Source of the DNA: Amoebophrya sp. A120
Lineage: Eukaryota; Protista; Dinoflagellata
Direction: 5' to 3'
DNA length: 64,000 nt
Assembly: GCA_905178155.1 (NCBI GenBank)
Contig: CAJINV010000014.1
Location: 1,291,858-1,355,857, forward strand
This document shows positions 111 through 53,477 of this stretch, one piece after another (position 1 is the stretch's first letter; every line of letters begins with the position of its first letter). The notes below the pieces were generated by a model. It searched no databases, was not told the DNA's origin, and was given only the letters and a program-made list of their open reading frames with translations. The position numbers and the translations under genes are program-made.

Positions 111-2434
111 ATGGCCTCCACAACCTCCACGTCGATTGCAGCCAACAACACGTCTTTGCCCCTCATCCGCGGTCTCTTGGACCAACTGCAGGCGCACATC
201 GAGGAGTATTCCATGAGTACCAACCGCACCCGGTGGAAACGGTTGAAAAACGACATCATCCTCAAAGACCAGGATTACGAGCAGGCACTGAAGCGACTAG
301 ATCCCAAGAAGGGCGACTATGCATTGCAAATATGTCTGGGTCTGGAAAAATGCCAGGTTTGTCATGCTCTGCTAGCATGACTGTCAACGTCAAGTCTGTC
401 ATGCAAGGTACCCACAAGCGCCACTTTTGTGTCATGCAAAAACCCAGCACCAGCTTCTCATGCAGAATAGGCAACACCAAGCGACTCAAAAACCTGTCAT
501 GCTGAGCCGGCATTCCTGGCGTTCTCTTGATTCGCCAACCAGCATCAGAAGTTTCAGACCCAGACACATTTGCATTTCATAGCGACCTGGAAGTCCCGAC
601 GTTCGTTGAGGCCCAGTTGAAGGACGACCTATCGGCGCTGGGCACCGTGGCGGCGGATGTCGCTGGGCACAGTTTTTTGTAACCTCTAAAGGCACGCTTG
701 ATGAACTTGTTAGCTGTACCAATTCAAGAACAAATCTGCGTTTTTTTTGCAACCCGGAAGAGCGTAGTAGAACAAGGACAAGCTGGTTGGTACCGGTCGT
801 CACCTCCGGAGTTGTGCACGACTTGACACCGATCCTGAAAATGCCAGTTTTGGCTCACCATAATTTGATGACCAATCACGACGCGGTCGAAAATTTCTCA
901 TTTGGAATCCGAATTCAACAAGAGCTGTTGACCACAACGAAGCCTCTTCTACATAAACCGGCTCGATTTTTTTCAAGAGCAGCCAGCTCTTTTGCGGACC
1001 AGGACGGTGCCGCTGGTGATGCTGTAGACAACAACGTTGCCGCAGGCGAAAGCAGCACAGTGGGTGCCCAGGCAGGGGATGGAACTACAGGAGATGCGGC
1101 TTCGCCTACCCCCGCTCCTTTCTTCATCGACCCCGTCGACGGGAAGCGTACGTCGATGGAATTGAAGCAGTTTCCGGACAAAATCCCCTCTGTGATCTCC
1201 CCGTTGGACAACGTCCGGATAAAGCAAGTCTTTAACGTTCTCGGAAACAAGGCGATCACTTCCGCAGAGGAAGCGACGACAAACGAAAACACATCTGGGT
1301 GGCCGAAGAATTTCTGGAAGAAGTTCAACCAGCTGGTGCTCTCGAATGTGTGGAACGATTTCAAGGCGGCGTGTCAAGCCGGAAAGCTGGACAAGAAGGG
1401 CAAAAATAACACCCCCCTCGGGTGGGCGCCGCGCATCGAGGAAAAGAAGATGCAGATGGCCGAGGGGTGCGAAGTCATTTACCAGAGCTTGAAGAACAGG
1501 ATCGGGAAAGCGAAGGATTTAGTGGTTGGAAAACAGGACTACTTTGCGGTGCCCGGTGACCCAGTGGAGGAGTTCAACACCCCTGGAGGCGGGGGAGCAG
1601 AAGACGAACCACCGGTGAGTTTCTCGATCGATCCCTCTGAAGATGAGGGGGCAAGAACATCAGAAGTAGAACAAGCAGGACGAGGACCTTTTTACTACCC
1701 GGTTCTCCAGGGCCCGAACCAATTCCACAAGTTGTGTATGCCGGGCGGCGGCGACAAATCCTGGCTCGTGAACTTGGAACGCACCTGCAACGCCTACCAC
1801 AAGGAGCGGCAGGCGGAGTTGCAGGCCGAGGAGCCGGCACCGGAGGACGTTTTCCGGAATCCGGAATTGGCGAGCGCCGACGCGTCGCCGGCAGCTGTGG
1901 CGGAAAAGGAGGCGAAGAAGGAAGAATTCCGGAAGAGCATGGCGAAGATCCACGACGCCGGCGGGGGTCAGGTGGAAAAGCCGCTAGCGTCCTCTTCTTC
2001 CGGCACGGCTATCAGGTCGATTGACGGCCGGGGCTATGAACTGCAAAAGTATCGTACTCGCAACATGAATGCACTACAAATTTTCTCAGCATGAGAAATA
2101 AAATTTGTAATGCTGATACTGATTTGCCTTGACAAAGAAAATTGTAATGCAAGACCTGCATTTATACGAGTAAGATACTTTTGCACAGCAACATAGGGGC
2201 TGGCCGCCCATCCAACTACCGGATTTCAACGTGAAAAAGTTGCTGCAAAAGAGCGACTTCTCTCTCGAGGACTTAGAGAAGAAAGGCCTGCAAATCCGGT
2301 GCATTCCGCTGGAGAAGTGGGACCCCAGTGTGCCGAACAAAATGAACACGATTGTGGAACCGCTAGTGACGGAGAGTACCAGCACGAGCTTCAAAGTACC
2401 CGACGGGTCGGTTCGAGAATTTCTGGAATTGTGA
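111..2434 (+). CDS. Multi-exon host gene, unknown protein (5' and 3' ends uncertain)
   Basis: ORF pieces 111-317, 587-~671, ~940-2034 and 2201-2434 join after intron removal. Removing 318-581 plus one GCGAC gives KKGD|LEVPTFVEAQLKDDL. Removing 2035-2195 plus one GGGGC gives DGRG|WPPIQLPDFNVKK. Further probable non-canonical introns lie near 672-740 and 809-939 (less certain). Confidence 0.65.
318..581. mobile_element. Introner/MITE, family B copy 1 (264 bp, TSD GCGAC)
   Basis: TAT...ATA ends. TIR tatgcattgcaaatatgtctgggtctg / cagacccagacacatttgcatttcata. GCGAC at 313-317 and 582-586. Removing 269 nt restores the frame. Confidence 0.9.
2035..2195. mobile_element. Introner/MITE, family A copy 1 (161 bp, TSD GGGGC)
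   Basis: TAT...ATA ends. TIR core tgcaaaagtatcgtactcg / cgagtaagatacttttgca. GGGGC at 2030-2034 and 2196-2200. Removing 166 nt joins ORF 787 to the frame of ORF 2231. Confidence 0.9.
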
Positions 2435-3851: not shown

Positions 3852-5220
3852 ATGCAGTCGCGCGGCAACGCGGGTCAGCCTCAGGGACCTTCGCAGCCCA
3901 AGCCCAAAGCGAAGAAGAAGCAGACCATTGAGGATATCAACGAGATTAAGAAGGACCTGGTGAAGCCCTTTCGCACGCTGCACAGCACGTACGACCCCTT
4001 TCAACAGATTCACGGGTTTGGCGACGGGTCGGTCTACTTCGCGGAAGATGCCTGCGGATTCGATCAAATTGTGATAGACGAGTACTGCGACGCCTTTCGG
4101 CTGTCCGACGAATTTGGGGACGGGTTTGTGAATTACAAGGACCTACCGGTCATCATGATCCGGGTGGGTGCGTTTCCGCGATACAGCCTTCCGGAGCTGG
4201 GCGAAATCGACCGCGGCACCGCCTCGACGTAATATTGTGATTTTTTTTATGTTCTTGATCAGATCAGAGACAAGGCGGCCTTCATTCAAAAGATCAGCGG
4301 CAGGCGCTGGGGCAGAGTGCCGAGCGCCAACGGGGGAGAACACTGGCAACTAGAAAGCGACCAAGAAATTCGCTTTACGGTGACGGGAGAAGATTTCTGC
4401 GAAAACACGGGGCGAGAAATCAAAGACGTTGCGGGCCAAGCCTTCTACCGCAACCAGGAAGGCCTGTGGGTTGCGGAGTGACGCCGGCCGTCACAAATCT
4501 GTGTTCGAGTGTACGTCCACTCAAAGAAGGATGAGAAAAGACAATTTACAATGTCACGGACAAACACAAAGATGATGATGATGATGATGATCAGATCAGA
4601 CCTACAGACCACTTTTGAAATAATTCAATGGTTTTTCTCGTCATGTCGTGGTCGTGCTCGTCGTGTATCATGAAGACCTGCATGCAATGGTTTTGCGCTG
4701 CGTATACGATCCCGGCACAATGAAAATAAGTAAGTAAATCAATCCTTATCCTCCAAATCACAGTCCCTGGGTGTTTAAGCGGTTGGAGCATTGCGTGAAT
4801 GGGATCGACGAAGAGGGCACGAACATGTACGATTTTCAGTTCTTTCTGAAGTTGATGCGGAAGTGGGACGAAAACGGCCACAAGTACCTCGGGCAAGACG
4901 AGCTGTTGAATGCCTTCCGGATTTTGGATCTAGACAACAGCGGGTTTATCACAAGCAACGAGGTCAGGCAAATCATGAACGTGTTCGGCGACAAACTGTC
5001 GCTGGAAGAAGCAGATGGTATGCTGGAACTCGCAGACTTGGACGGGAACGGAAACATCAACTACGAAGAGTTTGTCGGGATCGTCGTCCAACAGATCGTG
5101 AAGAAGGGAAAACCACGGCAAGACTCCTCCGTGTCGGGTAACACGAGTCGCCCGCATAGCCGATTAAGTGGCGCGGGGGGAGGGGGTCTGGGGGCGACCA
5201 GTATCCCCGCGGGAATTTGA
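3852..5220 (+). CDS. Calmodulin/centrin-like EF-hand protein, 3 exons (3852-4228, 4268-4477, 4764-5220)
   Basis: EF-hand loops DEFGDGFVNYKD, DEEGTNMYDFQF, DLDNSGFITSNE and DLDGNGNINYEE. GT-AG introns 4229-4267 and 4478-4763 keep the frame. Confidence 0.85.
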
Positions 5221-6290
5221 TGTTGAGAGAGCAGGAACAAATTGAAATTCTCTCATCAGATTAAAGGAACGAATTTTTTATGTAGGCTTCATTTCTGCAA
5301 ACGAAACTTTCGTACAGATAAAAAGATTGTAACGGTAATACTACTAGCTTTTGAAAAAGGTTCAGACTTTTGATACCCCGGTGGGTCATCTGAATTTGTA
5401 TGGTCGTGAACATAGCTCTGCTGAAATAGTGCTTCGGAATACTATACGTCATTCTGGGTATTATTTGCGGACCCAAGTCCACAGTAGAACGTATGGCCGG
5501 GGTACAAGCCGGTCTAGGGGGCGGGGTTCGAGCTCCCTCTGAAGGTGAACAATGAGGCCTGTTTCTGTTTCGGGCATACTCCGTTTGTATTTTTTTACTC
5601 CCCTAGCGTTTGTTTTGTTGTTTTAACTTGCGTTTTCATGTTTGAAAAAAAAACCGTGAACAATAATCAAGAAAGTACTAGAGAACTGGACAGATGAACA
5701 TTTGTGGAACTTTTTTTCGTACTATAAACGGTAGTAAAAAGAGGTAAGCTAGAAGGTCTTGACGAACAGGACGCCGTACCGGCACTGGAGATCAGAAATA
5801 GTACTCATATCGTGGCGAAGTAAGTACTAGCACAGGCAGCTTCATCTTGAGATGGTACGACGTAGAACTAAATTTTGGATGATCGCGAAGATGTTGAATG
5901 ATTTCACTCCCACGGCAACAGTAAAAGTTTTGGTACATAATTTCCAGTATTCACAAAGATACGCGATTCGTAATTTGATTTTGTTCATTAAAAAAAAGCA
6001 AAAAATCCTACATTGTCTCCCGATACTACAAGACGAAACACGACCAGAGGACGTGCCAACAGCTTTTTTTGTATGACAACAATAAAAACCAAAAAAAATA
6101 AAAAAAAATATTTCCGAAGCGGAGACAGGATAAGACTTCATCGGCCAATCAAACATGTTGAACTCGTGGCATTTTGAACTTTTTTATTGATAGCATTGGT
6201 CTACAACAAACAGGCTCTGCTTTTCATCGATCATGAAAGACGGAACACTAGCTACGCCCTTCTAATTTTTCGAACTCTCAGCAGCACTAG

Positions 6291-6767
6291 TGTAGCGACG
6301 GGTGTCCATAGAAACCGTCTGTACACCATTCTCACCGTGTTCGAAGCGCAAAATAGCATTACAGATTTGCGAGGACAACATGAAAAGATCTTTTCTCCGC
6401 AACAACAAATTCCATTCAACAATAAAAATGAAGTAGATCACGAAATTCTTCTTGTGTACGAAAAAACGTAGCAACAATTTTCCAACACTAGAAATTGTAA
6501 TCCGGACTTCATAGCACGCGAAATTGGCGAGGCAAAACAGTGATGATGAATTTGCGCTGCTTCCAAAAACCATTTTGAACCCAAAAACAGTTAGGAAGTT
6601 TGAGACTACGACGTGCCGCAAACTGCATTGAGCACGCCTGTAAATCTTGAAGTTCAACATCTGTGACAAAACTTGAAAGTAAAATTACAATTGTGAATTC
6701 TTGTTCTCTGTGAAATCATCTTCACGAGAAACTTGCATTCTGTGTTCCACTAAGCACTTTTGCTACA
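6291..6767 (+). repeat. 5' LTR (477 bp)
   Basis: TG...CA ends with a 6-bp inverted repeat TGTAGC/GCTACA. Five substitutions versus the 3' LTR by manual comparison. Confidence 0.97.
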
Positions 6768-6768
6768 G

Positions 6769-6783
6769 TGGTACATCAGCCGG
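6769..6783 (+). promoter_or_regulatory. Primer-binding site, probably tRNA-Gly
   Basis: TGGTACATCAGCCGG starts one base after the LTR end. TGG pairs with the tRNA CCA end. The sequence resembles the complement of eukaryotic tRNA-Gly(GCC) 3' ends (TGGTGCAYYRGCCGG); the tRNA identity is inferred. Confidence 0.75.
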
Positions 6784-6900
6784 CTCGAAAAGACACCGGG
6801 TCAAAGAGAACAAACCGGATAAATAATCCGGAGCCAGTTTTTTTGCATTTAAAAACCGGCAATATTAAACAAAATGCTTTATTTAAATCTCAAAACGTCG

Positions 6901-8059
6901 ATGGCAACGCAAAGTGACTTCTTCTTCATCCAAATCCACCAGCAGCAGCTCGTCGGTCAAGGCAAATAAGCCGGTCGCCGACGCGGCCTGGGGCGCAATC
7001 GACTGTGGAGCAGACTGCTCGGTGATAGATAAAAACAAGGATTGGAGGGAAGCAACTGTATGTAATTGGCAGGCGGCAGTAGCAATCGCAGCCGCCTACC
7101 CAGAAAGCAATACGGTATTCGCGGTAACAAATCTGCCGGTGCAAACGTACAACGACGGCGGATCACCGGAAATACACCGAACAGAAGTAATCCTCTCCCC
7201 GCGCGGACTTGAAAAAGTCTTGCTGCTGGACACGGACGAGGTCAATAAGTGCTCGGAAACGCTCTTGGTGAAGTTGCGGGAGCAAGAGGCGGACGGAGAA
7301 ATCCGGCTCTTCCCCCCGAAGGAAAACGCTTTCGTCGGCGGCGTGAACATTAACGCTGAAAAGGCCGAGGTAGGACAAAAATTGCTTCGCACACCGGCGA
7401 CAGTCGAAGAGTACAACTCACCAAAAACCGGGCACGACTACCACGAAATTTACGACACTCTCCACCGCTTCTTCCCGCACGAACAAGACCTCCCAAAAGG
7501 GTATCGATGCAAAACTTGCGGTACGTCCGCAGACCCCGCCTCTCCGCTGTATCAAACCGAGGACGAAACTACAGCGTACGCGTGGGAGGCTGCGAGAAAA
7601 AAGTCGGGAACAAGCACGAGATTGCAATCGTACCGGGGTGGCGCGCAAATAAAGCACGCCCCTGGTGTCAGGGTTCAGTTGGACGACGACACAAGGCGGT
7701 ACTTCGAAGCAGGCCGCCTTGCGCCGAGGTTGAAGGACAACGCGAAAAAACAGTTAGACGCGATTCTCTGCGACATAAACAACACTCCGAGCGCGAGCCA
7801 CTACTGCGACGCCAAGCGTGTCCTCGATTACGAGCTGAAGACCTTGGCGGGAAACAACACGGAGTGGGTGCAAGCGACGTTCAGCTGGTTCAAGAAAAAC
7901 AATTTGGGACCGGATCACGACACTCGGTTCGTCTACGTGAACCCCTCCGAAATCACGCCCTGGGACGTGGTGAACGCTTTCGCGCAATTCGACTATCCCG
8001 CCTTCCAATTCCTTGACTGCGACCTAAACCGCATTAGCGCAGACGAGCTGGAGTGCTAA
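6901..8059 (+). CDS. Retroelement upstream ORF (ORF0, ~381 aa) with a retropepsin-like motif
   Basis: Open frame 6914-8059 has no in-frame ATG. ATG 6901 is one base out of frame. Motif AIDCGADCSVI has its Asp at 7001. Confidence 0.7.
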
Positions 8060-8067
8060 ACAATTCT

Positions 8068-11000
8068 ATGAACGACACCACGGGGACGCCAGCGTCGCCA
8101 GCCATGTCGAGCATGGAAGAAGCACTTGACGACCTCCAGGAAGCGGAGCAAAAAACAGCCGCCGCGGGAGAGCAGCAGCAACAAGAAATCGGGCTGGTTG
8201 TCAGGGCAACAGAAGGAGAAATAACAGTGTCCGCGGGCGGCGAACCGCAAACCCCGGTGCTGTTCACTTCTCTGTCTTCAAATGTCTCAATGCCAGATGC
8301 AGAAAGCGGAAACCGCTTGCAGCCGCCGCGGGGAGCGAATACAGAAATAAACTTCAGCCTCAGCTCGATAACAAACGAGTCATTTCTTGCAGAATTGCTG
8401 GCCTTGTGCGAGAAGAACAGGGACGAAATGACGACGAAAATCGGCAGCGTTGCGGCAAACTGCGAAAACGGGATTGCCGGGCTACATCGTCGACTGGAGC
8501 TGCAGCACAGCGGCACTCGCGGAGAAATCGCGACACTGCAAAATCGCGACTCGATGCTGGACAACAAAATCCAAGATTTCAAAGGGGAATTATTGCAGAA
8601 CCATGTTACGCAGATTACCGCGGTGGAGAAAATCCAAGCGGACTTCTCCGCCCTCGAGCAAAACTTCGGAGCAATTATCGGCCAGCATCTCAAACAGCAG
8701 CTGCTCGCAGTCCTCGCAAACGACCCGCAGTTCCACGCGCTACACATCATGGTCAATAAGCCCCAGGCAATGGAAATGGTGCAGGAAGCAATTAGCCGTT
8801 CGTACAAGCTAGCAGAGCTGTTTGGAAAGCTAGAAGATAGGGTAAACATCCAGGTGCTGGTGGCATTGCAACAGGTCCCACAAGTCCGGGATCTGGTGTC
8901 GTCGGTCTGCGAGCTTGTCTTGAAAAACGAAGCAAACCAGAAGGCCATTCAAGCCACAGCACAAGCGGTTGCGCAAGACGTGGCAGACGCAGCCAGCGAC
9001 AACCTCATCATGTACAAACAGCAAATCGAATTTCAGGTCGATGGCCAGGCGACAAAGCAAGAGCAGACTCAACAAGACCAAATCCTCATCGATCAGCAAA
9101 TCCGCTCCCTCGCAGAAGATAGGCAGAATCTAGCAGGCCGCGTGGAGAAAACCGAAGAAGCGATAGTCTTGCTCCAGCACGCTGCGACAATAAACGCTGA
9201 AAATCCGCCTGCTGCGCATAACACGCAATCAGCCAACTCCGAAATCTCGGCTCTGTTCCCAGATATGACGCTGGCAACGCGCATGGAAAAGTTGGAGCGT
9301 CGGCTACAAACGGACGATGAGTTCGCTCAACGCCTTTGCAAGCTCGAAATCTCATCAGCTATCAAGCCCTTGCAGGAATCTCTGGAAAAACTGCAACTGC
9401 AACCGCCGCAGCAGCAAGCGAGTCTGCAAGTCGAACCGTTGGCAAGTACGGATGCAGAAACGACCAGTAAGCTTGATGGCGTCTTCGAGCAGAAGCAACA
9501 TGAGATAAATGATTTCTTCGTGGACAAAAAGAAAATTTTCGTTGACGAAATGCAAAAATCCAAAGCCGAAATTGAAAGTTTCTTTGCAGGAAAAAAGAAG
9601 GAGGTCGACGACGCGCGTGACAATCTTGCCGAATTGCGCGCGTCGCTGCAGGAAAAACTCGACAAGCTCGGAGGCGAAGATGTCGTGAGCCGGCAGCTTC
9701 TGCTGGAGGAGAAGTGGAAACAGCTCGACCATAAGCTCCACGAAAGCCAGGTCTCGCTGCAAACCAAGCTGGAGCAGCTAAACGAAACTAAGGAGCAGCA
9801 CCAGGACGACTTGCGGGACGCCAAACTCAACATAAACCTGCACAACAGCCAGCTGCAAATCCTTACGGACCTTCTGCAAACCAAAGCGCCCAACAGGAGA
9901 GAAAACGATAATAGGACGGTAAGCGACCGGTTAGTCGAGCTCGAGGATGCGGTGCAAGAGTGGAATGAAGCCGCAGAGCGGCACAGCTTCTTCGACGAGG
10001 CCGAATACCTCACATGCCCGCAAGCAGCTCCAGCAACTGTAGGGACGCAAAGCGAGAGAATTAGCACGACAATCCAGAACAACCCAGGACAAGCCGCAGC
10101 CGCGCAGGTTTTTGACATCTCCACGCCAGCCAAAGCCGGGGAAATCCGAGGTCAAGATCCGCTGTCGCAGCAGCAAGCACTGATGTCGCCGGAGCAGAAA
10201 GAATACGCGAGAAACCTCTCGGCCGCGCAGCCGCGCTGCAGCGCGGAAGCAGACCGTGACCCTCCAGCAATCAGAACATCATATCATCCGCCCGTGCAAA
10301 GCTCGACTCTACAGGCCGCGAACATCTGTGATGCAATTATGTCGCAGAAGAAGACTCCCGCATCCGTGAATTCGCAAAGAGGCGCATTCGCAGCAGGGTT
10401 CGGTGCTGCCGCTCCTCCGCAGGGTGCACATTATGCGCCGCGATTCTCCAGCTCCAGTGCCGCAAGCAGCGAGATGCACTACTACTCCGAGCAAAATTTT
10501 AACTTCGGAAATTCGCCGCCGGCAAGAGCAATGCCTGCCCCGCGTGAAAGCAACCCGTACACGGAAACGGCGCAAAATAGAGAGGCAGCATTCTCGTTCT
10601 TTGCCCAGCAAAACCAACAGCAAGGCGCATATGCGTACCCGCAGCAAAACGAGCAGCAACAGTACCAAATCGCGAACTTGCCCACGGGAAGCTGGGCGTC
10701 GCATGACTTTGCAGGAGCCAACCTCCCGTCCCTCCGACAACAGCAAAGCGGTGCGTTCTTTGAAAAAACGCTGTCGCGGCGGGGAAGCGCGGAATCGGAC
10801 GTTGGAGACAGCGCCAGTGTAGTGGCGTCAATCGCCGGGGTTTCCGCAACCGCCTCCTCCGCAAGCGCAAGCAGCAAGCTCGTATCAGCAGTTGGCGACG
10901 GTGTAGGACAAACGGAATATTTCGCAGCCGAGCTCGTACCACGAAATGAGCGCGCGTGGCGCTCGCGCTTCGGAGGCACTGCAAAAATCCTCGCAACAGA

Positions 11001-14000
11001 ACAGGATAAGGACGACGCGGCGAGCGGAATCTATCCGATCGCGCATCTCCTGCAGCGAGCAAAACTTCCACTTCGTATCAAAGACGCAGAAGGCGTGCCC
11101 GAGGACGCAGAAATCCAGCAATTGTTGCTGTCCGAGGACGAGAACAACGAAACATCACTCCTGGTCCACGCGTACATCGCGAATAACGACGACGCACAGG
11201 CATTCGCGAGACTGCAGGAGCACGAAAAACTGACGGTGTGGAAGCTCAACTACGACGATTCGCGCAAAGCTATCTCTGACCACTTCGAGGTAAAACCAGT
11301 CGACGTCCGCCTGATTATGTTCGCGGGCAGCCTCAACCTCTGCTTCAAAATAAAACCGCAAGCGAAAAAAGACGGAGGAAAAGGCACAAACATGAACGAG
11401 TGGATCAAGCGGCTCAACCAAATGCGGAATTGCAAGATCGTCGCGAAGCTTAGTGATATCAAATCCTCGCAGAGCCAGCTGCAGGCGCTTGACGATGGGC
11501 AGGAATTAGACGCGCTGAAAAGCGATGCCGAGCATGACTACAAACTCGCGCACATGGTGCTGAAACGAAAACCCAACCAAGAGGACCTGTCGCCGGATTT
11601 CGTGGAGATGCTCCAGCAGGTAGACGAGAAATTGAAGGACGCCCGCTCCAGAAACAAGAGTCACGGCGGCAATTTTTCTCTTGCAAAATGGAAGGCGCAG
11701 GGACTAGAAAGCATGCTGTCGCTGATCAACGTCGTGCACGCCCAGGCTACGGGGGAAATCGAGCTGGATTATAAAAAGGCCTTCGAATACATCGGTCAAA
11801 AGTGGCAAGAGAGATTCGAAGTCCCGCTGGATGGAACTGCTGTCGCGAAACTCCGCAAACAGGTCGTCTTCGAGCACAAGCCACCGGCAAATGCGGCCGT
11901 GATCGACATCCAGTCGTGGATAGAACAGCATGAGCACAGGCTGACGCGGATGATCGAATATTGCATCGGTTCGAAGCAGCAGGTCCCAAACCTCGACGCT
12001 ACGCCAGACCGAGACTCCACCGCGCAGGAATTGAACAACCTGTACCACGAAGTGTTGCAACAATTCCGCACCGAGTTCGACAACAGCATGATGTCGCACA
12101 AGCCAACGCCGCTCCCACCAAACAAGCACACGCCGCGCATCGTGCTAACCGCCTACAAGGAAATCGTAATCTATAAAGTCCAGCTTGCCCGCCAAACAGC
12201 AGTTCTCTCTCCTGGTGAAAAAACTTCTCCGCCAGGTGGAGGTGCAGCAAACGGCGGCCGAGGTGGTGCAGGAAACACAAGCAACCCCGATGCTACTGTG
12301 AAGAAAGCTGCAGCTGCAGAGCGAAGGGCGGCCGCGCTACGAGAAAAAGAGGAGGCTGCTCGGAAACTCCAGGAGCAGCAACATCTCGATGCAGCAAACG
12401 CCGCTGCGGCAGCCGCAAGACAACAGAACGCAGAGGTGCCCGTGTGGACGATCAAGTGCAAGGGAGTAGGTCACGTTGCACAGGAGTGCAAGAAAAATCT
12501 GGAGATCCAGAAAGAGGGCAGCAAATACACAATCATCCTCAACACCACCGAGCTTTGCAAAACCTGCAACGGGAAGCACGCGCTGTTCAAGAGGCTGGTT
12601 GGAAACCCAAACGCACCGCTAATCGCAATGACGTGCCCAAAAGACCTCGCTGCGCTCCCAGATTCGCATTACAACAAACTTAAAAAAGAAGGTAAAGTCG
12701 ATGATAATACCGTTTGCGGAATGAGCATACAGCTTTGTAAAAACGATGCTGGAGAACTTGTCAAGTACAATCCAAAAGGAAAAGGAAAGGGCGGTTCCAG
12801 CAGCGATAAGAACTGGCGAAGCAACAGTAAGCAGACGGACGACGGCAAAGCAGACGGAGGACGAAGACCGCCCCCTGCGGGTGCTGCTGCTGCTGCTGCT
12901 GCTGCTGCTGCGGCGGCAGGCGGGGCTGCGCAAGCTGCAAAAGCGACCGCGAAAAAAGCTGCTGCGCCGGCCCAAGGAGAAACTATCATCGGCGTTCCGA
13001 AGATGATGCCGGCACCGAGGCGCGCTGCGGCGCTGCGAAGCTGCACTGTGTCGGATGACGGCGTCTTCCCAGCGAAGCGGGTGAAGAAAATGACCAGCGA
13101 TACGACGCCAGAAGGGCACTTCGTCCAATTCGAGATTGGCAATAGCGGCCGCAAGTACTGGTGCCAAATAGATACCGGTGACGACTTCGGCAACATCATC
13201 GACCCGGAACAGTACGAAGATTTGTTGAAGAACCATGAAGCGGAAATCGAAGAGGGATTTGTTGAGTTGGGTAAAGACTGCAGCCTCGCTGCGGGGCAAT
13301 TCGCCCCGTCTGCCCAACGCCTCCGGTTCTCGAAGTCAGTGCATGTAACAATGACAATCCGCGACAAAAATAATCCCGAATTGTTTATGATGCACAAAGC
13401 GCTGTACTTGGTTTCTGAAATTCCAATAGGACAACCTTTCGCGCTTTCTTTGCAAACCGCGCAAGCCATGAATCTGGTCCCGAAGGAAATTCAAATCCCC
13501 GTCGATGACGGCACCGGTAACAAGCTGTTGATCACACCGCAACAGGGAAAAGCCGCGTCCTCGCTTCACCTTTCAAACATCCGGAAGTTGAAAAAACCGT
13601 GCCAACAGTCCTACGAGCAGGTCGATCCGGAAACAGTGCTGACCTACGCGCCGAAACCGTACCTCGAACCAATCGAAGTCATGGACATCGAATTGGAAGT
13701 CCCAAGAGAAAAAGCGGTGGGTTACGGCTATTTTGCTGTTGCACCGACAAAACAGCTCGAGAAACGGCAAGTTTGGTTCACACCGGTGGTGGCGCCTCAA
13801 ATCATCCCAGGCAACGCAGGCACAAAACAGCAGCGGAGAGTGGTGTTGAATTTGCAGATCGAAAGCCTCGACGTCCGTGCAGCAATGCTTGACGAAGGGG
13901 AGGTGAAGGTAACAATCGCGACGGGCCCGGCGCGGCAAGCAGTGGTGAGCCGCGAGCTCGTGAAAAAACATCTGGCAGAGGACATGCCGGTGCTTCTCGA

Positions 14001-14547
14001 CGAAGAAGTCTGTGATAAGTGGATGCGAAAGCTGTCGAGCACGGAGCTAGAGGAAGACCTCAAGCACATTCGCACTTCGAAATTCCACGCGAAGCAGGCC
14101 TCGCTCGAGACCCGGGATGAGGATGCTATTGTAGCCCTGCAAGAGGAAATCCGCAAAGCGCGGGAGGAGGAGGAATCAGGTGAACCGCTCGCGAAAGTCA
14201 CCCACGACCACTACATCCGAACTTGCAGCGAGGAACTCTCCAAAGAAACAACTCATCGTCTTGCCGTTTCAGCATCACACATCCTCGCGACGCACCAACC
14301 CGGCGAACCACAGCCAGTCTTGAAGGGCTGCATCGCAAAGTGGACTATGGGCCCGAACGAGGAAGCTGCAGCTGCCCGTCCGATTGAGCTCAACCGCTAC
14401 AACGAAATCGCCATGGATTATCACGTGGAGGAAGCAATTCGATCCGACAAGGACGAACCTTACGGCTGGCAGCAAATCAATGGTCCTGCGGGGCCGCCGC
14501 GCATCATCTCTCCTGGGTTTCTGGTGAAACACGTGAAGAAAGACTAG
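8068..14547 (+). CDS. gag-pro: Gag-like polyprotein with aspartic protease and the N-terminal part of RT
   Basis: Long predicted coiled coil (~8400-9970). Degenerate zinc knuckle CKGVGHVAQEC (12457-12489) plus CKTCNGKH. Protease motif CQIDTGDDFGNII (DTG 13171-13179). RT entry motifs RPIELN...IISPGFLVKHVKKD end at an in-frame TAG (14545-14547). Confidence 0.85.
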   Translation: MNDTTGTPASPAMSSMEEALDDLQEAEQKTAAAGEQQQQEIGLVVRATEGEITVSAGGEPQTPVLFTSLSSNVSMPDAESGNRLQPPRGANTEINFSLSSITNESFLAELLALCEKNRDEMTTKIGSVAANCENGIAGLHRRLELQHSGTRGEIATLQNRDSMLDNKIQDFKGELLQNHVTQITAVEKIQADFSALEQNFGAIIGQHLKQQLLAVLANDPQFHALHIMVNKPQAMEMVQEAISRSYKLAELFGKLEDRVNIQVLVALQQVPQVRDLVSSVCELVLKNEANQKAIQATAQAVAQDVADAASDNLIMYKQQIEFQVDGQATKQEQTQQDQILIDQQIRSLAEDRQNLAGRVEKTEEAIVLLQHAATINAENPPAAHNTQSANSEISALFPDMTLATRMEKLERRLQTDDEFAQRLCKLEISSAIKPLQESLEKLQLQPPQQQASLQVEPLASTDAETTSKLDGVFEQKQHEINDFFVDKKKIFVDEMQKSKAEIESFFAGKKKEVDDARDNLAELRASLQEKLDKLGGEDVVSRQLLLEEKWKQLDHKLHESQVSLQTKLEQLNETKEQHQDDLRDAKLNINLHNSQLQILTDLLQTKAPNRRENDNRTVSDRLVELEDAVQEWNEAAERHSFFDEAEYLTCPQAAPATVGTQSERISTTIQNNPGQAAAAQVFDISTPAKAGEIRGQDPLSQQQALMSPEQKEYARNLSAAQPRCSAEADRDPPAIRTSYHPPVQSSTLQAANICDAIMSQKKTPASVNSQRGAFAAGFGAAAPPQGAHYAPRFSSSSAASSEMHYYSEQNFNFGNSPPARAMPAPRESNPYTETAQNREAAFSFFAQQNQQQGAYAYPQQNEQQQYQIANLPTGSWASHDFAGANLPSLRQQQSGAFFEKTLSRRGSAESDVGDSASVVASIAGVSATASSASASSKLVSAVGDGVGQTEYFAAELVPRNERAWRSRFGGTAKILATEQDKDDAASGIYPIAHLLQRAKLPLRIKDAEGVPEDAEIQQLLLSEDENNETSLLVHAYIANNDDAQAFARLQEHEKLTVWKLNYDDSRKAISDHFEVKPVDVRLIMFAGSLNLCFKIKPQAKKDGGKGTNMNEWIKRLNQMRNCKIVAKLSDIKSSQSQLQALDDGQELDALKSDAEHDYKLAHMVLKRKPNQEDLSPDFVEMLQQVDEKLKDARSRNKSHGGNFSLAKWKAQGLESMLSLINVVHAQATGEIELDYKKAFEYIGQKWQERFEVPLDGTAVAKLRKQVVFEHKPPANAAVIDIQSWIEQHEHRLTRMIEYCIGSKQQVPNLDATPDRDSTAQELNNLYHEVLQQFRTEFDNSMMSHKPTPLPPNKHTPRIVLTAYKEIVIYKVQLARQTAVLSPGEKTSPPGGGAANGGRGGAGNTSNPDATVKKAAAAERRAAALREKEEAARKLQEQQHLDAANAAAAAARQQNAEVPVWTIKCKGVGHVAQECKKNLEIQKEGSKYTIILNTTELCKTCNGKHALFKRLVGNPNAPLIAMTCPKDLAALPDSHYNKLKKEGKVDDNTVCGMSIQLCKNDAGELVKYNPKGKGKGGSSSDKNWRSNSKQTDDGKADGGRRPPPAGAAAAAAAAAAAAGGAAQAAKATAKKAAAPAQGETIIGVPKMMPAPRRAAALRSCTVSDDGVFPAKRVKKMTSDTTPEGHFVQFEIGNSGRKYWCQIDTGDDFGNIIDPEQYEDLLKNHEAEIEEGFVELGKDCSLAAGQFAPSAQRLRFSKSVHVTMTIRDKNNPELFMMHKALYLVSEIPIGQPFALSLQTAQAMNLVPKEIQIPVDDGTGNKLLITPQQGKAASSLHLSNIRKLKKPCQQSYEQVDPETVLTYAPKPYLEPIEVMDIELEVPREKAVGYGYFAVAPTKQLEKRQVWFTPVVAPQIIPGNAGTKQQRRVVLNLQIESLDVRAAMLDEGEVKVTIATGPARQAVVSRELVKKHLAEDMPVLLDEEVCDKWMRKLSSTELEEDLKHIRTSKFHAKQASLETRDEDAIVALQEEIRKAREEEESGEPLAKVTHDHYIRTCSEELSKETTHRLAVSASHILATHQPGEPQPVLKGCIAKWTMGPNEEAAAARPIELNRYNEIAMDYHVEEAIRSDKDEPYGWQQINGPAGPPRIISPGFLVKHVKKD

Positions 14548-17500
14548 ACCACAGGAAAAATGAAGCCAGTCCGCCGCAAGCGCATTGCGATCAACTACCA
14601 GCTGCACAACGTAAAAGCCAGGGGGTGTGCGTGGGTCCCAGTGCAAAATAGAAACCTCTTCTACAAAAGCCGGAAGTTTAAATTCGTGCGCGACGCGTTC
14701 TTCGGGTTCAGCACGCTGCGAATCAGCTACAAAACGTCGGCGCTCGCTGCGTGGTCAACAGGATTACGAAGACGTCCTGTCATGCGACCAAAACGGTGTG
14801 GGCTAGGGCCGAAGCAGAACCCAAACAACTTCTCAATGCGAAGCGAGACAGCGTTCGGGTGGCAGCAAAACGCGAAAGGAGAATATAGCACCCACGTGTT
14901 CATGGACGATGTGAAAAACAGCGGCGACGATATTCAAACCGAAGTCGCGGGAGCAGTCTTTGCATCAAAAGAAAATGACCACTACCCGGTGCTGCTGTGC
15001 GACAGAGAAGACTGGGAAATTGATTCGGAACCGGACGCCGAGTCGGAAGAAGAAGCCGTGGACTCCGGGCTTCCGCTGGATCCGAAAATGCACGCGAAAT
15101 TCCGCCAGGAACCGGAGGAGGTGATGGCGCGTAACGCTGCGGAGCTGAAATTCGACCGCGAGGTTATGCGCAACACTTGCAACCGCAGCCGGTTGTATAA
15201 CACCGGCTTCGAAAATATCAACGACCAGTCGACTGTGCTGCCGCGTGAAAAAATCGCCACCCCTGCTTGCATGCAAGAGACCGATCGCGGAAAGATTGAA
15301 GCCCACACAATTGATGCTTTCGCTACTCTTGCATGGCAAACTGCCTTCGAGCAGGACTGGAAAAAAATAATCGCGATTATCACGACTGATCTTGATGGAA
15401 ATGTGTTGCACGCAGCGCTCCAGACCGAATCCGGTATCACGCTTGAAGCCGCGATCGCGCCTGTTAGCGGTGCAAACAACAGACCGCGCGACACGATTAC
15501 CACATGGATTTTTTCGGACGCGAAAACCGCCGAAAAGTACCTCCACCTGCACCGGAAAGTGTGGTACGAAAACGACGTAGTCGATGCGGACGCCCGGATC
15601 AACGCGCAGGCCAAACTCTGCGGTTTTGCTTTTAGCATTGCAAAACTCCAGCCTGCGTCTCTGACTGTCAAGTGGCTAGGGGAAATTGTGCATTCCGACG
15701 GCGGTACCGGGATCAACCCGGAGCAAATAGAGAAGCTTCGCGAACTTGCAAAGGAGGCTTCGAAGGACGCGGTAACGGCAGTAGTGCACATCTCGAGCTG
15801 GGAGGGAGTGAGAAACTACATCTACAACCACGCCGAAGCGGTGCTGCCGCTCCGCCCGTATCTGCTCCCAAAAAACAATCCCAAGCACAAGCCCATCGCC
15901 CTCTTCAAAACCGACGTCGCAGCACATGATGCACTAGTCAAAGTAGCAAAAAAGGCAGACCCGAAGCTACGAAAGTATCCTATAGACTGGCAAACAATCC
16001 TCTACTTCGTCGGGTTTGGCGACGCGTCGAAAATTAAGTGGAGCGTGAGCCTGTGGGGCTCGTACGAAGAAGAACCAAAAATGCGGCTGCACGACAACGC
16101 GGATCAGATGTGGCGCACGGAGCTAAGCTGGCCAGCAAAAACTAGAGAGCTCCGCTGCATGAAGAATTTCTTCAAGTACCTGTACCCGCTGACGGAAGGT
16201 GTAAATCTCGTCTACTGTCACGACCACCTGTCAAACAGCCCAGAACAGCTCCTCTCCTCCCTTGACGGCGTAAACGTCGATGAAGTAGTCAAACGCGACA
16301 TCCACTTCCTCAAGCCATTTCTCGCTACGACGTGGTTCCTCCACCTGGGCGGAACCGCTCTCCGCTTTCCGGATGGCAGAAGCCGCTTCTATGACCTCGA
16401 AGACTTCAACCTGCAAAAAATCGTCCCAAAAGAAGCGTGCGACATCGCGAAAGTGGCGTTGTTTTGGCTTCTGAATCCAACCGCACGGGAAGATCCAGAA
16501 TGGAAAGCGAAGTTCATTCAAATGGGTAAGGAGCTGGCAGAAATGGTGGATGACGACCAAGCCTTCGAAGATGAAGCCGAGATGGAAGGTAAAATTTCAG
16601 CGGTGCGAAAACTTGGCGCGCCGCAATGCGAAGACGCAGGGCTGCAAACCGCGCTCCTGTGTGTGGACCCCGAAGGACCAGATGCACATGTCGCCACAAT
16701 CGGCAGGGTCCGCAGCTTGTGTTGGGCAAACACCACCCACGCCTGTGTGCGGGCGGCGAAGAACGAAAAGAAGCAAAAAACCAGTAGCAGTTCTAGCAGC
16801 GCCGGCGCCCAGAAGCCGAAGGAGGAGGAAAGCAAAATCAAGCCCACCTACGGCGGACGCGGCAGGGTGGACTGGGAAGAAATTTTCGATGAACCGACAG
16901 CGGTGATTCGCCCAAAGCGCCTCTACACCAAGCGCGACGTGCAGGTCAAGTCGGGGCATGAGTACTTCAACTATGTGCTTGATGTGGAAGTCACGCAGGG
17001 CGGAAAAACAGAAAAGATCACGCGCTGGTTCGGCCGGAATAAGTTCAAGAAGCTCGACAAAAATCTATCCGACGAGCAGGCTACAAAAATGGCTTACGAG
17101 GAGGCGCTTGCGTTTTTGCGGAAAGCCGTTGGCTTGCGGTGGGCAGAGGAGCAGAAGCAGCTCGAGCACGGATACCACGGGGACGTAAACCATAACTTCA
17201 TTATCCTCGATCCGATTGCAAGCGAAACGAACAACCCGGTCCCGCAATTCGCAAACGACTTCACCTGCCGCAATGTGATGTTCAAAGACCAAAACTACTG
17301 CGACAACTACCTGATTCTGCGCGAAGCAGTCAACTGCACTTACGCACGCTGCAGGGGTCACGGCGACGTCGTGCTGCACAAGCCCTCAGAAAACGACGAC
17401 TTTACGCCGCTGCACGATGTTGGCGTCCCTGTGGAAAGCGAGTTGAAGTGGACAACAGCAAATAAAGAGCTCCATGAAAAAGTTGCTCTTCCGCTCCTGC

Positions 17501-44900: not shown

Positions 44901-47900
44901 ACCACTACCATGCCGTCAAAACCAACAGCCGAATCCGCTTACTCTTCCGAAATCAGGTGTTGCCCCTGCACTACGGAAGGCTCAGATTTCCGAAGAGATT
45001 CGAGTACTGGCAGTTTGGACAGAACAGAGACACAAGTTTCTCCTCCGAATCACAACTTTCTTACTACTATCCGGATTTCTGCTATGACGACGAGAATTGG
45101 CGATTGTTCAAGAGGCACGAGTTTTTGAAGCAGCGGGCAGAGTTGGACATGTTGAGGCAGCTGCAAAAAGCGATCCGGAACATTGCGGAAGGCACGGACG
45201 ACAGCGTCGTCCTCGGTGGTGGTAGGTTGGATGAGTTAGGTACTGATTCCGATGATGAGGAGGTAGATTTTCCCTGTTCATCATCCAGCGACGACGATGA
45301 TCTTGGCGTTGCTTCTCGTAAGAAATTGTCTACCGGTAATAGACGTCAACCGACAAAAATGTTCGATGCTTCTGGCCGTCCGCAGCTGGCGATACTGGGA
45401 CGACGAGATACTGCGGGTCGTGATGTGTATAGCCAGGGGGCGAACACGATGGGCGAGAAAAAATGCAATTCTGAGCAGCAAGATGCTACAACGCAGCACT
45501 ACACCCACTTCCGCAAGCCGACCCCGGACTCGGCCGCCATCTCTTTCGAGTGGCAGCAGAACGAGCAGCACCCGCTGGATAAAGTTGGGACGATCATCAC
45601 GCGGGCGGACGGGGCAGTGCTCGTGGTGTCAAACATCGAGTATGTGGAGCTCGCCGGGTGTGGCTTGCGACGCAAGATTGACATGGTGAAAGTGGCGACG
45701 GTTGTGGCGGAAAGAATTGAAGAAGAGGAGGAGGAGGTGGAGAAAATAATCGAAAATGCCAGCAGCTCAACTGAGGAGAATAACGGCAAGGAAAAAAACA
45801 GCGGGCCACACAGGGGTCATGATTATGCACCAAGGGCAGGCGAGGACGCGGCGCAGGATCAAGGCGACCAGGAGGGAGATGTTCTTGTTCTTGACACGAT
45901 GAACACGAAGACCGAGGAAGGCCTAACGGCTACCGGACTTCGCGCAACGGCGGCTCCGAGCGGCACCAGCAAGAACACCAAAGATGTACTGAAAGTGGAC
46001 GACGACAACGACGACCGGCAAGAAATCGATGAGCGTCGACGTCCCATGTATCGGTACAAGCTGCACACGCGGAGACCGGTTTTGCTTGCGGAGCTGGCGG
46101 AGTGGGAAAAGGCCATTTCCGTCGAAATGCTGCAAAAGGTCACCGCCTGGCAGGGGGGATCTTACCGACGACTTGGGAACAAGGAGAGCCAGAAGTTCGC
46201 AGCTCGTAAAAGAACAGACGAAGACGAAATGATTGCAACATCCTCTACTAGTACAACCTGCGAAGAGAATGAGGATGACGGCAATCCAGTGCTTGCTGAT
46301 TTTGATGACACAGACGAAGGAGATGCCAGATTCCGCGACTTTTTCGCTGTAGAGGAGTTTGAAAGTTTGACTTTTGACGAAGAACTTGAAAACGACACAA
46401 AGCAGGACCTTTACGCGGAGCCAGGGGAAGGACAGCTACAAGATGAGGACAGAGCACCTACAAACGATGGTCCGCTGCAGAGTAAACCAGGACCTACAGG
46501 TGGAGATAAACATGAAATAACGGTGGAGACGCGTTTGGTGGTTGCAACAACTGGAACCAGCCCGGTCGACAAGCACGGGCAGGAAGAAGACGGAGAGGAT
46601 GTAGTTTGCGAATCGGCAGCTGGTGGTCCTCCCCTTTTCGAGAATCGGAAGCAGGAAAACGACATTCTTGTGCTGCGCGTGCCATGCCGTACTGAGTTTT
46701 GTAAGAATTCAGCATGTACAGGGTGTATTTTAAGTTTTTTCTGTGTAGTAAATGGCATGATGTAGTAGTCAGAGCTGCAGAAAAAGTTCATGTCTATTCA
46801 ATGAATAACCCATTCAACACAAACTAAACAGACGGCTGCGGTGGCGTACCCTGCACGCGGCAGTGGGCTGTGGACGAGGATGATGACCAAATTTTCACTG
46901 TGTACCAAGACGGCCACGACTACGATTGGGGGAGCCCTCCGGAGATGAAGGGGGATGCTGATCATGCACGCGATCACTACTACCCTGATCATGTTGCAAA
47001 TCACGACTTTCCTTCCCGGCACGTCTGGAACCTGTGCACGAGCATCACGCTGACCAACCTGGACACACACAGCAAGGACTTGCTGGATTCACCCCACGCG
47101 ATTCTCCGCACTTTTGTCCCGTTGACCGATTTTTCAGCAACTGCCTCCGGCTTCAATTCCTTTTCCCCCTCCGGTCGGAATGCGAAGAACGTGAGAAAAG
47201 TTTTCGAGTCGGAAATCAAACGACAGGAAAAAATCCAGCTGGCCGCGGCGCGAGAAAATAAAGCTGCGGCGATGCGGGAAAATAATAATCGTGTTGAAGA
47301 TCTTCAGGCGGGAATAAATACTGAAGTAGATACACCAGAAGAGACCACTCGAGTACCAGATTTTCATCCTGACAACCCCGCTCCAGATCTTGACCAGCCG
47401 AACCTGAAGTCCGTCGTTGCGACCCTTCGGGCAGACTTCTCGCACGTCCAGAAGTACGGCTGTAGTATCCAGGATCGGAAAAACCTCGAGAACCAGCGGA
47501 GGAAATTTGATATGGACTGCAAAAGTATCGTATTCGTATGAATGCATTACAAATTTCCTCAGCATGAGACAGAGAATCTGTAATGCAAATTTACCCTAAG
47601 AAAAAGATTTGTAATGCATGATTGCAATACGAGTACGATACTTTTGCACAGGATATTTGAAGAAAAGTACGAGCAGAACGAGTTGTGGAAGTTGTGCTTT
47701 TTGAAAGGCTTCTACGCAAGAAAAGAACTGTGTAACTGTAAATCTGTGATGCAGAAAATGCAAAACAGTTACACTTGTCATGCTCGACATGCATGATCGG
47801 CTCGCTTCATATGTATGTGTTTTCCTTCCTATCTGCGCATAACAAGTTTTTCCTGTCATGGCAGACAAACTTGTGATGCTGTTTTCGCAAGAGACTTGCA

Positions 47901-50900
47901 CTAACACAGTTTTTTTGTTCGATAGCTTCGAGTACCGGTTGCGACCGGCGACGCCCTACAACCCGTATAATTGGGACAACTACAGCGCGAAAGACGTCAG
48001 CGATTTGATGCTCTTTTCTAGCAGTCAACAGCTTTGTGCTAGTGGGGCAGGAGCTCCTTCGGGCACCCATGGCGACGCGTTGTCAGTAATGGCGCAGGAG
48101 AACTCGTCTTCGGGCGCCGGTTGTAGTTCTGCCACGGGATTATCGTCTAGTCATACGCCGTCAATTGTGGACATGAGCATGATGAATAGCTCGACCACTA
48201 CTTCGAGTTTATTCGGATTCGGCTTGCTGCCAGCGAGGACCTTCACGCCGGGCGCGAAGATGAAAACCGCAACAATGACGACGATCTTCATCCCGCGAGC
48301 GTGGCGGCAGTTTGGACACCCGAAACAACTGTATCACTCGGATAATTTGCTCCGACACAGAAGAGTGTTGTTGCAACAAGAAGGAGGAGGACCACATAAT
48401 AGCACGCACGAAGGGCCGCCGCAACACCAACACCAGCTGCAAAAATCGCTGCTGGCACTGCAGAACAGTACAGCTTGTGCCTCTTCTATGCAGCCGAACG
48501 CGCATCGCAGAACCCTGGACAGGCTTACTGGGTTCGATGAGGAGCGAGCTTCCGACCGCAGGCAGGAGGGGTGGAGTAGGAAGTGCTTGACGGACATCGA
48601 TTGTGAGAAATCCGTGCAGGAGTTTCTTGCGGAAATTGTGGGCAGTGTGGAACGGGAGATCAGTGGGCCTGTTGTGGAGGACGAAGTAGGAGAACGAGGG
48701 GAGCCAGCTTCTGCAAACGAAAGCACATCTGCTTCACACGAACAACACGAAGGCACGATACGTGCAGGAGGTCGCGGTCCCGCGCGAGATGAACTACTAC
48801 ACGGCGACTTCATTTCTGAAGACCCTGAAGAGGTAGCGCTTGCTGCCGCATCCGGCGGACAAGGACCACGTATTTTTCCCCAGCTCCAGAGGACGGACAG
48901 CGCCAGCAGCTCCTCGTCTGCGGACGAAGAGGAAGTTGTAGTAGATCGAAATCGAGGTGGTGGTCTGCAATTACAACAACTCTCGCAAGAACGTCGAGAC
49001 CAGCACGACGAGCAGAACAACAACTACAGTCCTGAAGAGCTTGAAGCGAAGAGGCGGAAAGAAACGAGGAGAAAGCTGGAGAAAAGGTTCGGGGTTCTGT
49101 TCCAATCCGAGGAGAAGCTGAGCTTGCTGCAAAGAGCCGTCGCGGGGCTGGTTCGGGAAGAGCAAATGCGGACGCAAGATGAGAAAAAGAAGGAGTTGAG
49201 AAGCACCGTTTTCGAGTATTACAATGAAATAAGCCCCCACCCCATATCAAAACAAAATTTCTGATGCTGGATTTGCGTGCACAAATCTGATTTGTCTTGC
49301 AGTAGAGGACTGCGGGCCCACATCATGCGAATGTAGAGAGGTTCTGGCCTAGGCACTTAGCATGGGGAACGTCTATACTGTAGGACCAACAGCATTGCAA
49401 ACCGCCTGCATAATGGGGCGGATCCCATGCCGTTGCTCTCTTGCAAGACAGACGTGATTTGTGGTCACAAATCAGCATCGCAAATTCTCTGAGGCGATGC
49501 TTTTCGATATGGGGAGGGGGATCTTTCCTTTTGATATCGAAGCAATTTCTCTGGAGAGTTTGGAGAAGTGGGAAGAGGTATCCTGTGCAAAAGTATCGCA
49601 CTCGTAGTAATTGCATTTATGCATTACAAATCTCTTTCTCAAGGTAAATCAGCATTACAAATTCAATTTGTAATGCTGGGGGAATTTGTAATGCAGTTTA
49701 TACTAGTACGATACTTTTGCAATGCATAAGAGGAATACGAGAAAGAGAGGCTCTCCGAAGAGCAGAAATTTTCGTCCGCCGCGTTGCTGCACGAGAGGAT
49801 GGTAGAGGAAGTTGGGGACGAGGAGAAAATCGCCTTCATCTTGAAGGATCCTACTAAAATAAATGTTGCTCCTCCTCCTGCCGCCGGCGGTCAGCAATTA
49901 TACAATTATGTCAACAATAATTATTCCAAAACCGCCTCGTCCAGCATGAACAAGCAGCAAAAGCACCAGTTTTTGTTTCAAAAAGCGCTCGAAACTGAAT
50001 CCCACCCGGCGAACAGCGTAATCAACGACGAAATTCAGAAACAGCTGCGCGTGGCTATGACCTGCTCAAGCGTTACAAGAATCTCAAACGTTACAATAGA
50101 ATCTGGGATGTGTCTTGCAGGATGAGCATGACAGACTCGCAGAGCGTTCCACTTTCTGCAATACAAATTTCGCCAGATTATAGTGCGGCTTGGAGCTCCG
50201 AAACTTGTCATGCGCAATCCTGTGGGAAGAGGCTAGATCATGCACTCTTGCATCACAGATTTCCATATTCTATTGCAACGTTTGAGATTGTAACACCTGA
50301 GCGGGTTATAGTGGCCGAGGTGCGGGGGGAGAAAAAGAAGGACCTTCAAGCTATTCACTGCAAAAATGTCTCGGTCTGGAAGAGTGGAACTTGTAATGCT
50401 GTCTGCGGATTCTACAAATATCTGTGTTGCATGAGCAGCAAGAAGCGTCCAGCTCTTGGCACGCACCAGAAAGGGCATTTGTCATGCGTGATAAGCATCA
50501 AGAAGCTCTCACAAAATCTGTGATGCTAGGACCTGCATCACTGACCTCATGGGTCATGCAAACTGTGCATGACAAACCCCGACTCTTCCAGACCCAGACA
50601 TATTTGCATATGATACAAGCGGAGCTGAAACAAATCGCGGCACTGATGAAGCAGGACGGGGACATGCGGCGGAAATTGGAGAAGTTGAACAAAACAGTAG
50701 CGCAGCGGTCGAATATCGCAGCGAGGAAGAACAAGGCGAAAAACAACTTGTACTATGGCAGGAACAACAATAAAAGCGGCTACATCAGCAATCTTGCGCC
50801 CATTCCAGAGGGAAGTGAGAGCGAAAATGCAGCTTCTTGCGAGAAACTAAACAAGCAGGACTTCTACAGAGACCACGGCGATGTCGTGTCCGACGATGAT

Positions 50901-53350: not shown

Positions 53351-53477
53351 GGTGGCGATGGGTGGCGATGGGTGGCGGTGGGTGGCGATGGGTGGCGGTG
53401 GGTGGCGGTGGGTGGCGGTGGGTGGCGGTGGGTGGCGGTGGGTGGCGGTGGGTGGCGGTGGGTGGCGGTGGGTGGCG
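53351..53477 (+). repeat. G-rich decamer minisatellite (GGTGGCGRTG)x12.7
   Basis: Directly visible perfect 10-bp period. Confidence 0.97.

Follow-up and report, generated by a model that had tools for sequence, protein, structure and literature searches.

Introners of five families in Amoebophrya sp. A120 share TAY...ATA ends, a 5-bp target-site duplication and an internal motif

The window described here is a 64,000-nt stretch of the genome of the dinoflagellate Amoebophrya sp. A120 (GCA_905178155.1, contig CAJINV010000014.1, positions 1,291,858 to 1,355,857, forward strand), and it contains eight short elements of the introner type. These fall into five families, yet all of them begin with TAY, end with ATA, bear terminal inverted repeats (TIRs) and lie between the copies of a 5-bp direct repeat. 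We are confident that they are non-autonomous DNA transposons with a 5-bp target-site duplication (TSD), and it is probable that a single transposase superfamily mobilizes them. With somewhat more reserve we favour the wider picture, in which short non-coding TIR elements with 5-bp TSDs leave the mRNA along with one of the two duplicates and are spread by cut-and-paste through one integrase-like (IS3EU/GingerRoot-like) type of transposase.

A scan of the window for TAY...RTA ends, a TIR and a flanking 5-bp repeat with at most one mismatch returns nine matches, namely the eight elements (Table 1) and one doubtful 83-bp match at 52660. When the repeat has to be exact there are seven matches at length 5 and none at lengths 4, 6 or 7; 30 block-shuffled windows gave one exact match in total. 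With no terminal motif imposed, six of the eight elements are still recovered with their 5-bp repeats, the element at 2035 being missed because its TIR is out of register and that at 49217 because of the mismatch in its repeat. Seven elements start with TAT and one (47713) with TAC, and all eight end with ATA. An earlier reading of the window from its letters alone (the sequence-only reading) had described these eight elements, and each was located with the ends, TIR and repeat it reported, a single repeat (49217) being imperfect. Alignment likewise reproduces its five families: A, with the elements at 2035, 47511 and 49579; B, with those at 318 and 50352; and three single elements at 47713, 49217 and 50056. 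The sequence TAT-N4-TGCAAA is common to families A and B as described, though on the right-hand side of 2035 the TIR is interrupted by additional bases. The interiors had been called largely unrelated, which holds in that no alignment joins one family to another but fails in that a T(G/C)TNATGC-type motif is repeated in all eight.

The rule extends beyond the window. Metagenome contigs yielded 143 loci to a search pattern made from family A. The 133 that belong to record series JACKZZ were used and merged to 561 kb, with the ten others and two viral chance matches left out; none overlaps the unique DNA of the window. In family A the ends were set from an internal core, the repeat being no criterion and many copies having one end preselected for TAT, and among 155 such copies the 5-bp repeat is exact in 119 and within one mismatch in 147, with two exact repeats at 4 bp and none at 6. 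The ends of family B were not selected for TAT, and 208 of 219 read TAY (201 TAT, 7 TAC); an exact 5-bp repeat flanks 68 of the 84 TAY...RTA pairs (92 pairs in all), with none at 4 or 6 bp. Three further families give exact 5-bp repeats in 11/20, 7/9 and 10/12 cases, again with none at 4 or 6. The corresponding test in family 5, where only 4 of 33 pairs are TAY...RTA, is confounded because the core of this family is tandemly repeated. The sequence-only reading had staked itself on fixed termini and a fixed TSD length, and the length of 5 bp holds across the five families that can be tested without confounding.

A catalogue scan of the 561 kb gave 426 matches, against none in each of three shuffles. 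Of the 422 catalogue entries, 20 are singletons and the others fall into 15 multi-copy families; 417 remain after five internal or chance pairs were dropped. All four bases are common at every position of the TSD in the related loci. Positions 11-14 of the element ends are occupied by A in 680-776 of 844 ends, with some families departing from this. In DNA run X1, between 80 and 257 contigs break at the exact ends of elements, and their flanks are unrelated.

Two of the related loci, L004 and L020, are 91-98% identical and have one family A insertion in common. L004 carries two extra elements, of two other families, and at both places L020 has a single copy of the respective 5-mer; the two sites are paralogous or haplotypic rather than a comparison between strains. 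One copy at the empty site and two at the filled site identify the 5-bp repeat as a true duplication of the target, in line with the single copy that the sequence-only reading expected of orthologous empty sites.

The motif noted above was found first in the eight window elements, where 28 sites (shuffle mean 1.8) lie in 1771 nt as against 27 in the other 62 kb, and was then tested in the related loci. Its consensus there, AAATTTGTNATGC, occurs at 14.4 per kb inside elements and 1.3 per kb outside, and is present in 394 of 402 members and all 15 families, with about 3-5 copies per element in both orientations. In 79 of the 80 element ends that score at least 5 bits, the best match lies 2 nt from the terminus. 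The motif is similar to what the commonest element end reads when reverse-complemented, which suggests that its copies may be repeated transposase sites, although it could instead serve splicing. The shared motif, the fixed TSD length across families and the empty sites were not found in the searched text of the Amoebophrya and dinoflagellate introner literature, the figures of which may show the internal motif or a fixed 5-bp repeat.

Six of the introners lie in the 3' part of one host gene. Once each element and 5 nt are removed this part is a single open frame with one stop, at its end, against 18-40 stops for other frames or removal lengths. The frame test alone cannot separate a removal of +5 from one of +2; the transcript contigs do so, their joints skipping the element length plus 5 in 6/6 elements and in 4/4 runs of one sample. 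The contigs represent spliced RNA, since the ordinary GT...AG intron of the same gene is skipped as well. All eight elements had been taken to be introns, and for six of them, between 47.5 and 50.6 kb, transcript contigs now confirm it; 318 and 2035 are putative introns by restoration of the reading frame.

At 49217 base 5 is not the same in the two TSD copies, and it is that of the right copy which the transcript retains, the ambiguity of the joint being 4 rather than 5, which places the 5' cut within the left copy. The junction at 49579 becomes GT...AG if the intron begins at the last base of the left TSD copy. Both cases fit one splice register, N|TAT, as do the commonest donors given for A120 in the accessible text of Farhat et al. 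(2021; PMC7789003), which are GT, CT, AT and TT. Many published A120 acceptors begin with A, and this is unexplained by the register unless conventions of strand or placement were mixed.

Introners do not have the GT...AG borders of canonical U2 introns. Among 203 coding-oriented insertions with exact TSDs, GT-AG is possible in any register in only 10, as it is in 1/6 of the transcript-tested window elements, and neither G at the donor position (64/203) nor AG at the acceptor (19/203) is enriched. Copies of family A stand in genes in either orientation (23:22, for the 45 assignable among 73). As GT-AG is so rarely possible, its parts are not enriched and either orientation occurs, recognition is likely to be by symmetric features of the element. 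Mismatched TSDs were not seen to drift towards GT or AG, and folding predicts strong RNA hairpins for the elements. Mismatches in gene-oriented TSDs of the related loci are most frequent at position 5 (14/36) and least so at position 3 (2/36).

The introners are unevenly spread along the host gene. About 20 kb of long host open reading frames (ORFs; 26359-46765) contain none, and six from five families are found in 47511-50615, the last 3.1 kb of a gene that starts with a 3639-aa ORF; the intervening exons are as short as 42-57 nt. This suggests clustered insertion or uneven tolerance.

Table 1. Introners of the window and associated host-gene features (positions are those of the window)
Feature	Position	Strand	Length, ends and TSD	Evidence
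Family B introner	318..581	+	264 bp, TAT...ATA, TSD GCGAC	stop-free frame after removal of element + 5 nt; RNA hairpin z = -5.1
Family A introner	2035..2195	+	161 bp, TSD GGGGC	frame restored by removal of element + 5 nt
Family A introner	47511..47655	+	145 bp, TSD TTTGA	150 nt skipped in transcript
Family C introner	47713..47924	+	212 bp, TAC...ATA, TSD GCTTC	217 nt skipped in transcript
Family D introner	49217..49536	+	320 bp, TSD TCGAG/TCGAA (one mismatch)	325 nt skipped in transcript
Family A introner, orientation opposite to 47511	49579..49728	+	150 bp, TSD AGAGG	155 nt skipped in transcript; RNA hairpin z = -7.6
Family E introner	50056..50310	+	255 bp, TSD GTGGC	260 nt skipped in transcript
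Family B introner	50352..50615	+	264 bp, TSD CAAGC	269 nt skipped in transcript
Ordinary GT...AG intron, same host gene	46689..46831	+	143 nt	skipped in the contigs used
3' part of host gene with six introners	46832..51479	+		single open reading frame after removal of every element + 5 nt

The sequence-only reading had expected the rule of ends and TSD to lead to an autonomous partner, and in this it was disappointed: none was found in the 625 kb formed by the window and the related loci. This is about 0.5% of a published 115-Mb genome, and the missing partner is accordingly weak evidence. Integrase queries of the related loci gave nothing; the 1333 ORFs of these loci had no Pfam scan, so that other types of transposase are not covered. 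Stand-alone relatives of the integrase encoded in the window were not found at near lengths, which is again weak evidence. Scans of viral contigs gave two chance matches within coding DNA and two blanks, and those of prokaryote genomes 0 and 13 matches, the 13 being uninspected.

The long TAT-ended candidates are all either composites of a short element and an insert or without a recognisable ORF. An 815-bp element in locus L032 (6184-6998) looked like A120 family 38 of Gozashti et al. (2025) and proved to be a family 5 element with an insert; it has no Pfam hit, and a representative search gave two proteins, the first unnamed and near-identical, the second repetitive. Part of its insert (190 bp) also lies within an element of another family. 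For an element of 1104 bp in L012 the Pfam scan covered the longest ORF and gave no hit. A third candidate, located in L007 and 813 bp long, consists of a family B copy and an element nested in it. The nested element (2204-2726) is 523 bp long and has a TIR, TAT-G6 ends and an 8-bp direct repeat but no internal motif; it probably belongs to another superfamily, and its 8-bp TSD is one that we would associate with hAT. This TAT-ended element, with its 8-bp repeat and no motif, means that TAT ends alone are not diagnostic. Inserts ending in an ATG/TGA microsatellite were observed in four introners (L032 6184-6998, L017 5427-5883, L090 301-613 and L081 26-328). Those of L032 and L017 have the 190 bp in common at 98% and those of L090 and L081 share another insert; they look like truncated ends of non-LTR retroelements (that is, without long terminal repeats, LTRs) that landed in introners.

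In the mechanism we propose, a transposase supplied in trans would bind both the TAT ends and the repeated motif, and would insert the element by a cut staggered by 5 nt without preferring any target. The enzyme may have a retroviral-integrase fold, given that TA...TA ends and TSDs of 4-6 bp are typical of that clade and that family 38 has integrase-like remnants. In the RNA the hairpin would join the two ends, and a modified spliceosome would then cut inside the TSD copies. The intron would probably start at the last base of the left copy and the exon be restored exactly, and through this exact restoration insertions into coding sequence could be tolerated in either orientation.

That one DDE transposase type serves all the elements was the central claim of the sequence-only reading. 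It has gained from the rule beyond the window, the single-copy empty sites and the shared motif, and the transposase itself has not been found. A number of observations weigh against it and against the picture built on it. Neither a transposase nor an autonomous element was found in the 625 kb, and Farhat et al. (2021), in the accessible text, found no transposase in A120 and rejected a general mobilization by transposase. Beyond TAT, the first 16 bases agree little from family to family, as would be the case with several cognate enzymes, and for this reason one superfamily is better supported than one enzyme. The related loci are a biased sample, since the family A pattern that fetched them includes TAT, and 8 of the 155 family A copies have no 5-bp repeat. 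No exact repeat at 6 bp, the usual length in IS3EU, was found in families A and B (0/155 and 0/84). The RNA evidence consists of contigs from a single sample with a guessed library type, and the splice register is based on one mismatched TSD and one GT...AG case. When 243 motifs were sampled in predicted RNA folds, no more than 82 were paired to another motif, which leaves it open whether the motif acts on DNA or RNA. A larger proposal is possible but doubtful: that the A120 introners, tens of thousands in number, for the most part form one transposon system, a new integrase-like lineage (TA...TA ends, 5-bp TSD) between IS3EU/GingerRoot and TDD that would recognise arrays of AAATTTGTNATGC, and that the same symmetric architecture would be an orientation-independent, GT/AG-free splicing code for a machinery without U1, with exact restoration of the exon.

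The divergence of the TIRs between families after the first three bases could also mean that several related transposases are at work, one per TIR type, with the shared motif being a host or splicing signal selected since only elements that bear it leave the mRNA. Occurrence of the motif in both orientations, and of insertions either way in genes, is what a strand-symmetric splicing cue needs, and U1 small nuclear RNA is undetected in A120. However, a motif that approximates the reverse complement of the commonest end and sits 2 nt from the terminus (79/80) is expected of repeated transposase sites, and one TSD length runs through all five families testable without confounding, which together make several enzymes unlikely.

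A different source for the enzyme is the Ty3/gypsy LTR retrotransposon resident in the window, the integrase of which might integrate introners, perhaps once the excised intron RNA has been reverse-transcribed. This young 19-kb element has a 5-bp TSD and an integrase with visible catalytic motifs, there is one strong copy of the introner motif in its LTR (18.8 bits; 2/300 shuffles; post hoc), and such a route would account for the failure to find a DNA transposase in A120. It is nevertheless improbable, as the LTR ends in TG...CA and not TA...TA, TGT stands at no more than 3 of the 155 left ends in family A, and introners are hairpins formed by inverted repeats, with a TSD for each and without an LTR pair; a single motif copy in 477 bp may also be chance. 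Least probable is a spread by reverse splicing or by hairpin-templated DNA repair, with the 5-bp repeats a by-product of ambiguous splice sites and no staggered cut. The strong hairpins and the failure to find a transposase, here or by Farhat et al. (2021), would suit it, but reverse splicing would not duplicate its target, whereas one 5-mer is seen at empty and two at filled sites; moreover the repeat is sharply 5 in length and arbitrary in sequence, and genes contain family A copies either way round. Mobilization by one integrase-like type of transposase thus remains the reading that we prefer.

The Ty3/gypsy-type element spans 19.2 kb (6291-25480) between 477-bp LTRs that are 99% identical (6291-6767 and 25004-25480). 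Its ends are TGTAG...CTACA, its TSD is ACTAG, and there is no introner inside. Two long ORFs (8038-14547 and 14548-18822) lie in the same frame with one TAA between them, within a region resembling reverse transcriptase; a third (18666-20627) encodes the integrase, with an H2C2 domain, and several extra ORFs are found at both ends. The element is unusually large and very divergent, with 24-26% identity to its only two hits. The near-perfect motif copy of each LTR lies at 6355 and 25068 on the minus strand. The LTR aligns to no catalogued element and, with its TG...CA ends, gives no reason to regard the introners as solo LTRs or terminal-repeat retrotransposons in miniature.

Elsewhere in the window, 52050-56030 is repeat-rich and non-coding. 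Palindromes rich in GC occur in it, as do a tandem array with a 10-bp unit (near 53360-53480), arrays of 11 bp in inverted arrangement (54606-54836) and a short sequence that is repeated three times (near 52061, 53791 and 55970). Three host ORFs (4738-5220, 58867-61305 and 62541-63518) have EF-hand, ankyrin-repeat and weak TRAF zinc-finger matches.

The movement of Amoebophrya introners and their splicing in the absence of GT-AG are open questions: the first genome paper ruled out general mobilization by a transposase, and most families have no class in later work. The elements, their TAT ends, 5-bp repeats and the annotation of family 38 are already known. Added here are the constancy of the 5-bp TSD from family to family, the motif that the families have in common, the empty sites and the finding that exactly one duplicate is removed with the element, and these make both the missing transposase and the splicing rule testable. 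The fixed rule (TAT...ATA, 5-bp TSD, motif) is a filter by which a genome can be searched for the autonomous element and supplies a candidate protein-binding site, and mismatched TSDs, which about 20% of copies have, are a means to map the true splice sites. Since one duplicate is removed and the protein is unchanged in either orientation, insertions into exons should be harmless.

That inverted-repeat introners occur in Amoebophrya, as the sequence-only reading stated, is correct, and the window elements match those published for A120. In the accessible text of Farhat et al. (2021) the inverted repeats consist of TAT, seven looser bases and a run of As, with hairpins and direct repeats at the borders; the window elements have the same inverted repeats, border repeats and hairpins, are comparable in family lengths and are removed non-canonically from mRNA in 6/6 cases. 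The same text gives the direct repeats as 3-5 nt, variable in length and position (with a 5-bp example in the legend of Fig. S19), and reports no family-specific motif in the inverted repeats. In contrast, the repeat is fixed at 5 bp here once the ends are set at TAT...ATA, and single-copy empty sites and a shared motif are found.

In the parts available of Gozashti et al. (2025; PMC12130899), most A120 families are 'TIR DNA, unknown', and the TSD length is 5 in 6 of 56 rows for A120 (of 58) and 2-11 or none in the others. Family 38, of about 808 bp and five copies, is annotated there as TIR DNA / Ginger with '5-bp TSD, TA/TA Termini' and has homology to Copia/Gypsy elements over its putative transposase region. 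It agrees with the present elements in both termini and TSD, a comparison by annotation and not by sequence; its 5-bp annotation covers one five-copy family, whereas here several families are involved. The same source lists a Mutator-type A120 family with TSDs of 8-9 bp, so not all A120 introners follow the 5-bp rule.

The sequence-only reading had described IS3EU accurately. In the accessible text of the sources (PMC10045372, PMC6839031, PMC12730594), IS3EU/GingerRoot elements have TA...TA termini (TAYGG...CCRTA in rust fungi), TIRs, little target preference and a TSD that is usually 6 bp, and no mention is made there of such elements acting as introns. The introners have the TA...TA termini, but the TIRs of GingerRoot, at 100-150 bp, differ from theirs, and as the 6-bp rule fails they are at most IS3EU-like. 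Ginger1 and Ginger2/TDD elements have TSDs of 4 or 5 bp; TDD-4 and TDD-5 of Dictyostelium, with a Gypsy-integrase-like transposase, share the 5-bp length with the introners (PMC2836005, in part). According to the same portion, Ginger2/TDD termini are TGTNR and metazoan Ginger2 prefers RTATAY targets; among the introners TGT begins only 3/155 family A left ends and 1/219 family B ends. In the literature as far as accessible, Amoebophrya is paired with IS3EU, GingerRoot or Ginger only by Gozashti et al. in 2022 and 2025, the former naming them in its references only.

In behaviour there is a parallel with miniature transposable elements that have inverted repeats (MITEs). The introners are short, have a TIR and a TSD of fixed length, exist in many dispersed copies and show a single target copy at the two paralogous empty sites. 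The MITE-type introners of Micromonas, Aureococcus and Fritillaria, described in the accessible part of PMC11282704, are similarly short TIR elements with TSDs that have turned into introns. Those carry or co-opt defined splice dinucleotides, whereas here it is a near-random TSD that determines the dinucleotides at the junctions. The elements of the window are therefore members of the known A120-type introners, which work like MITEs and are not IS3EU or Ginger elements as these are defined.

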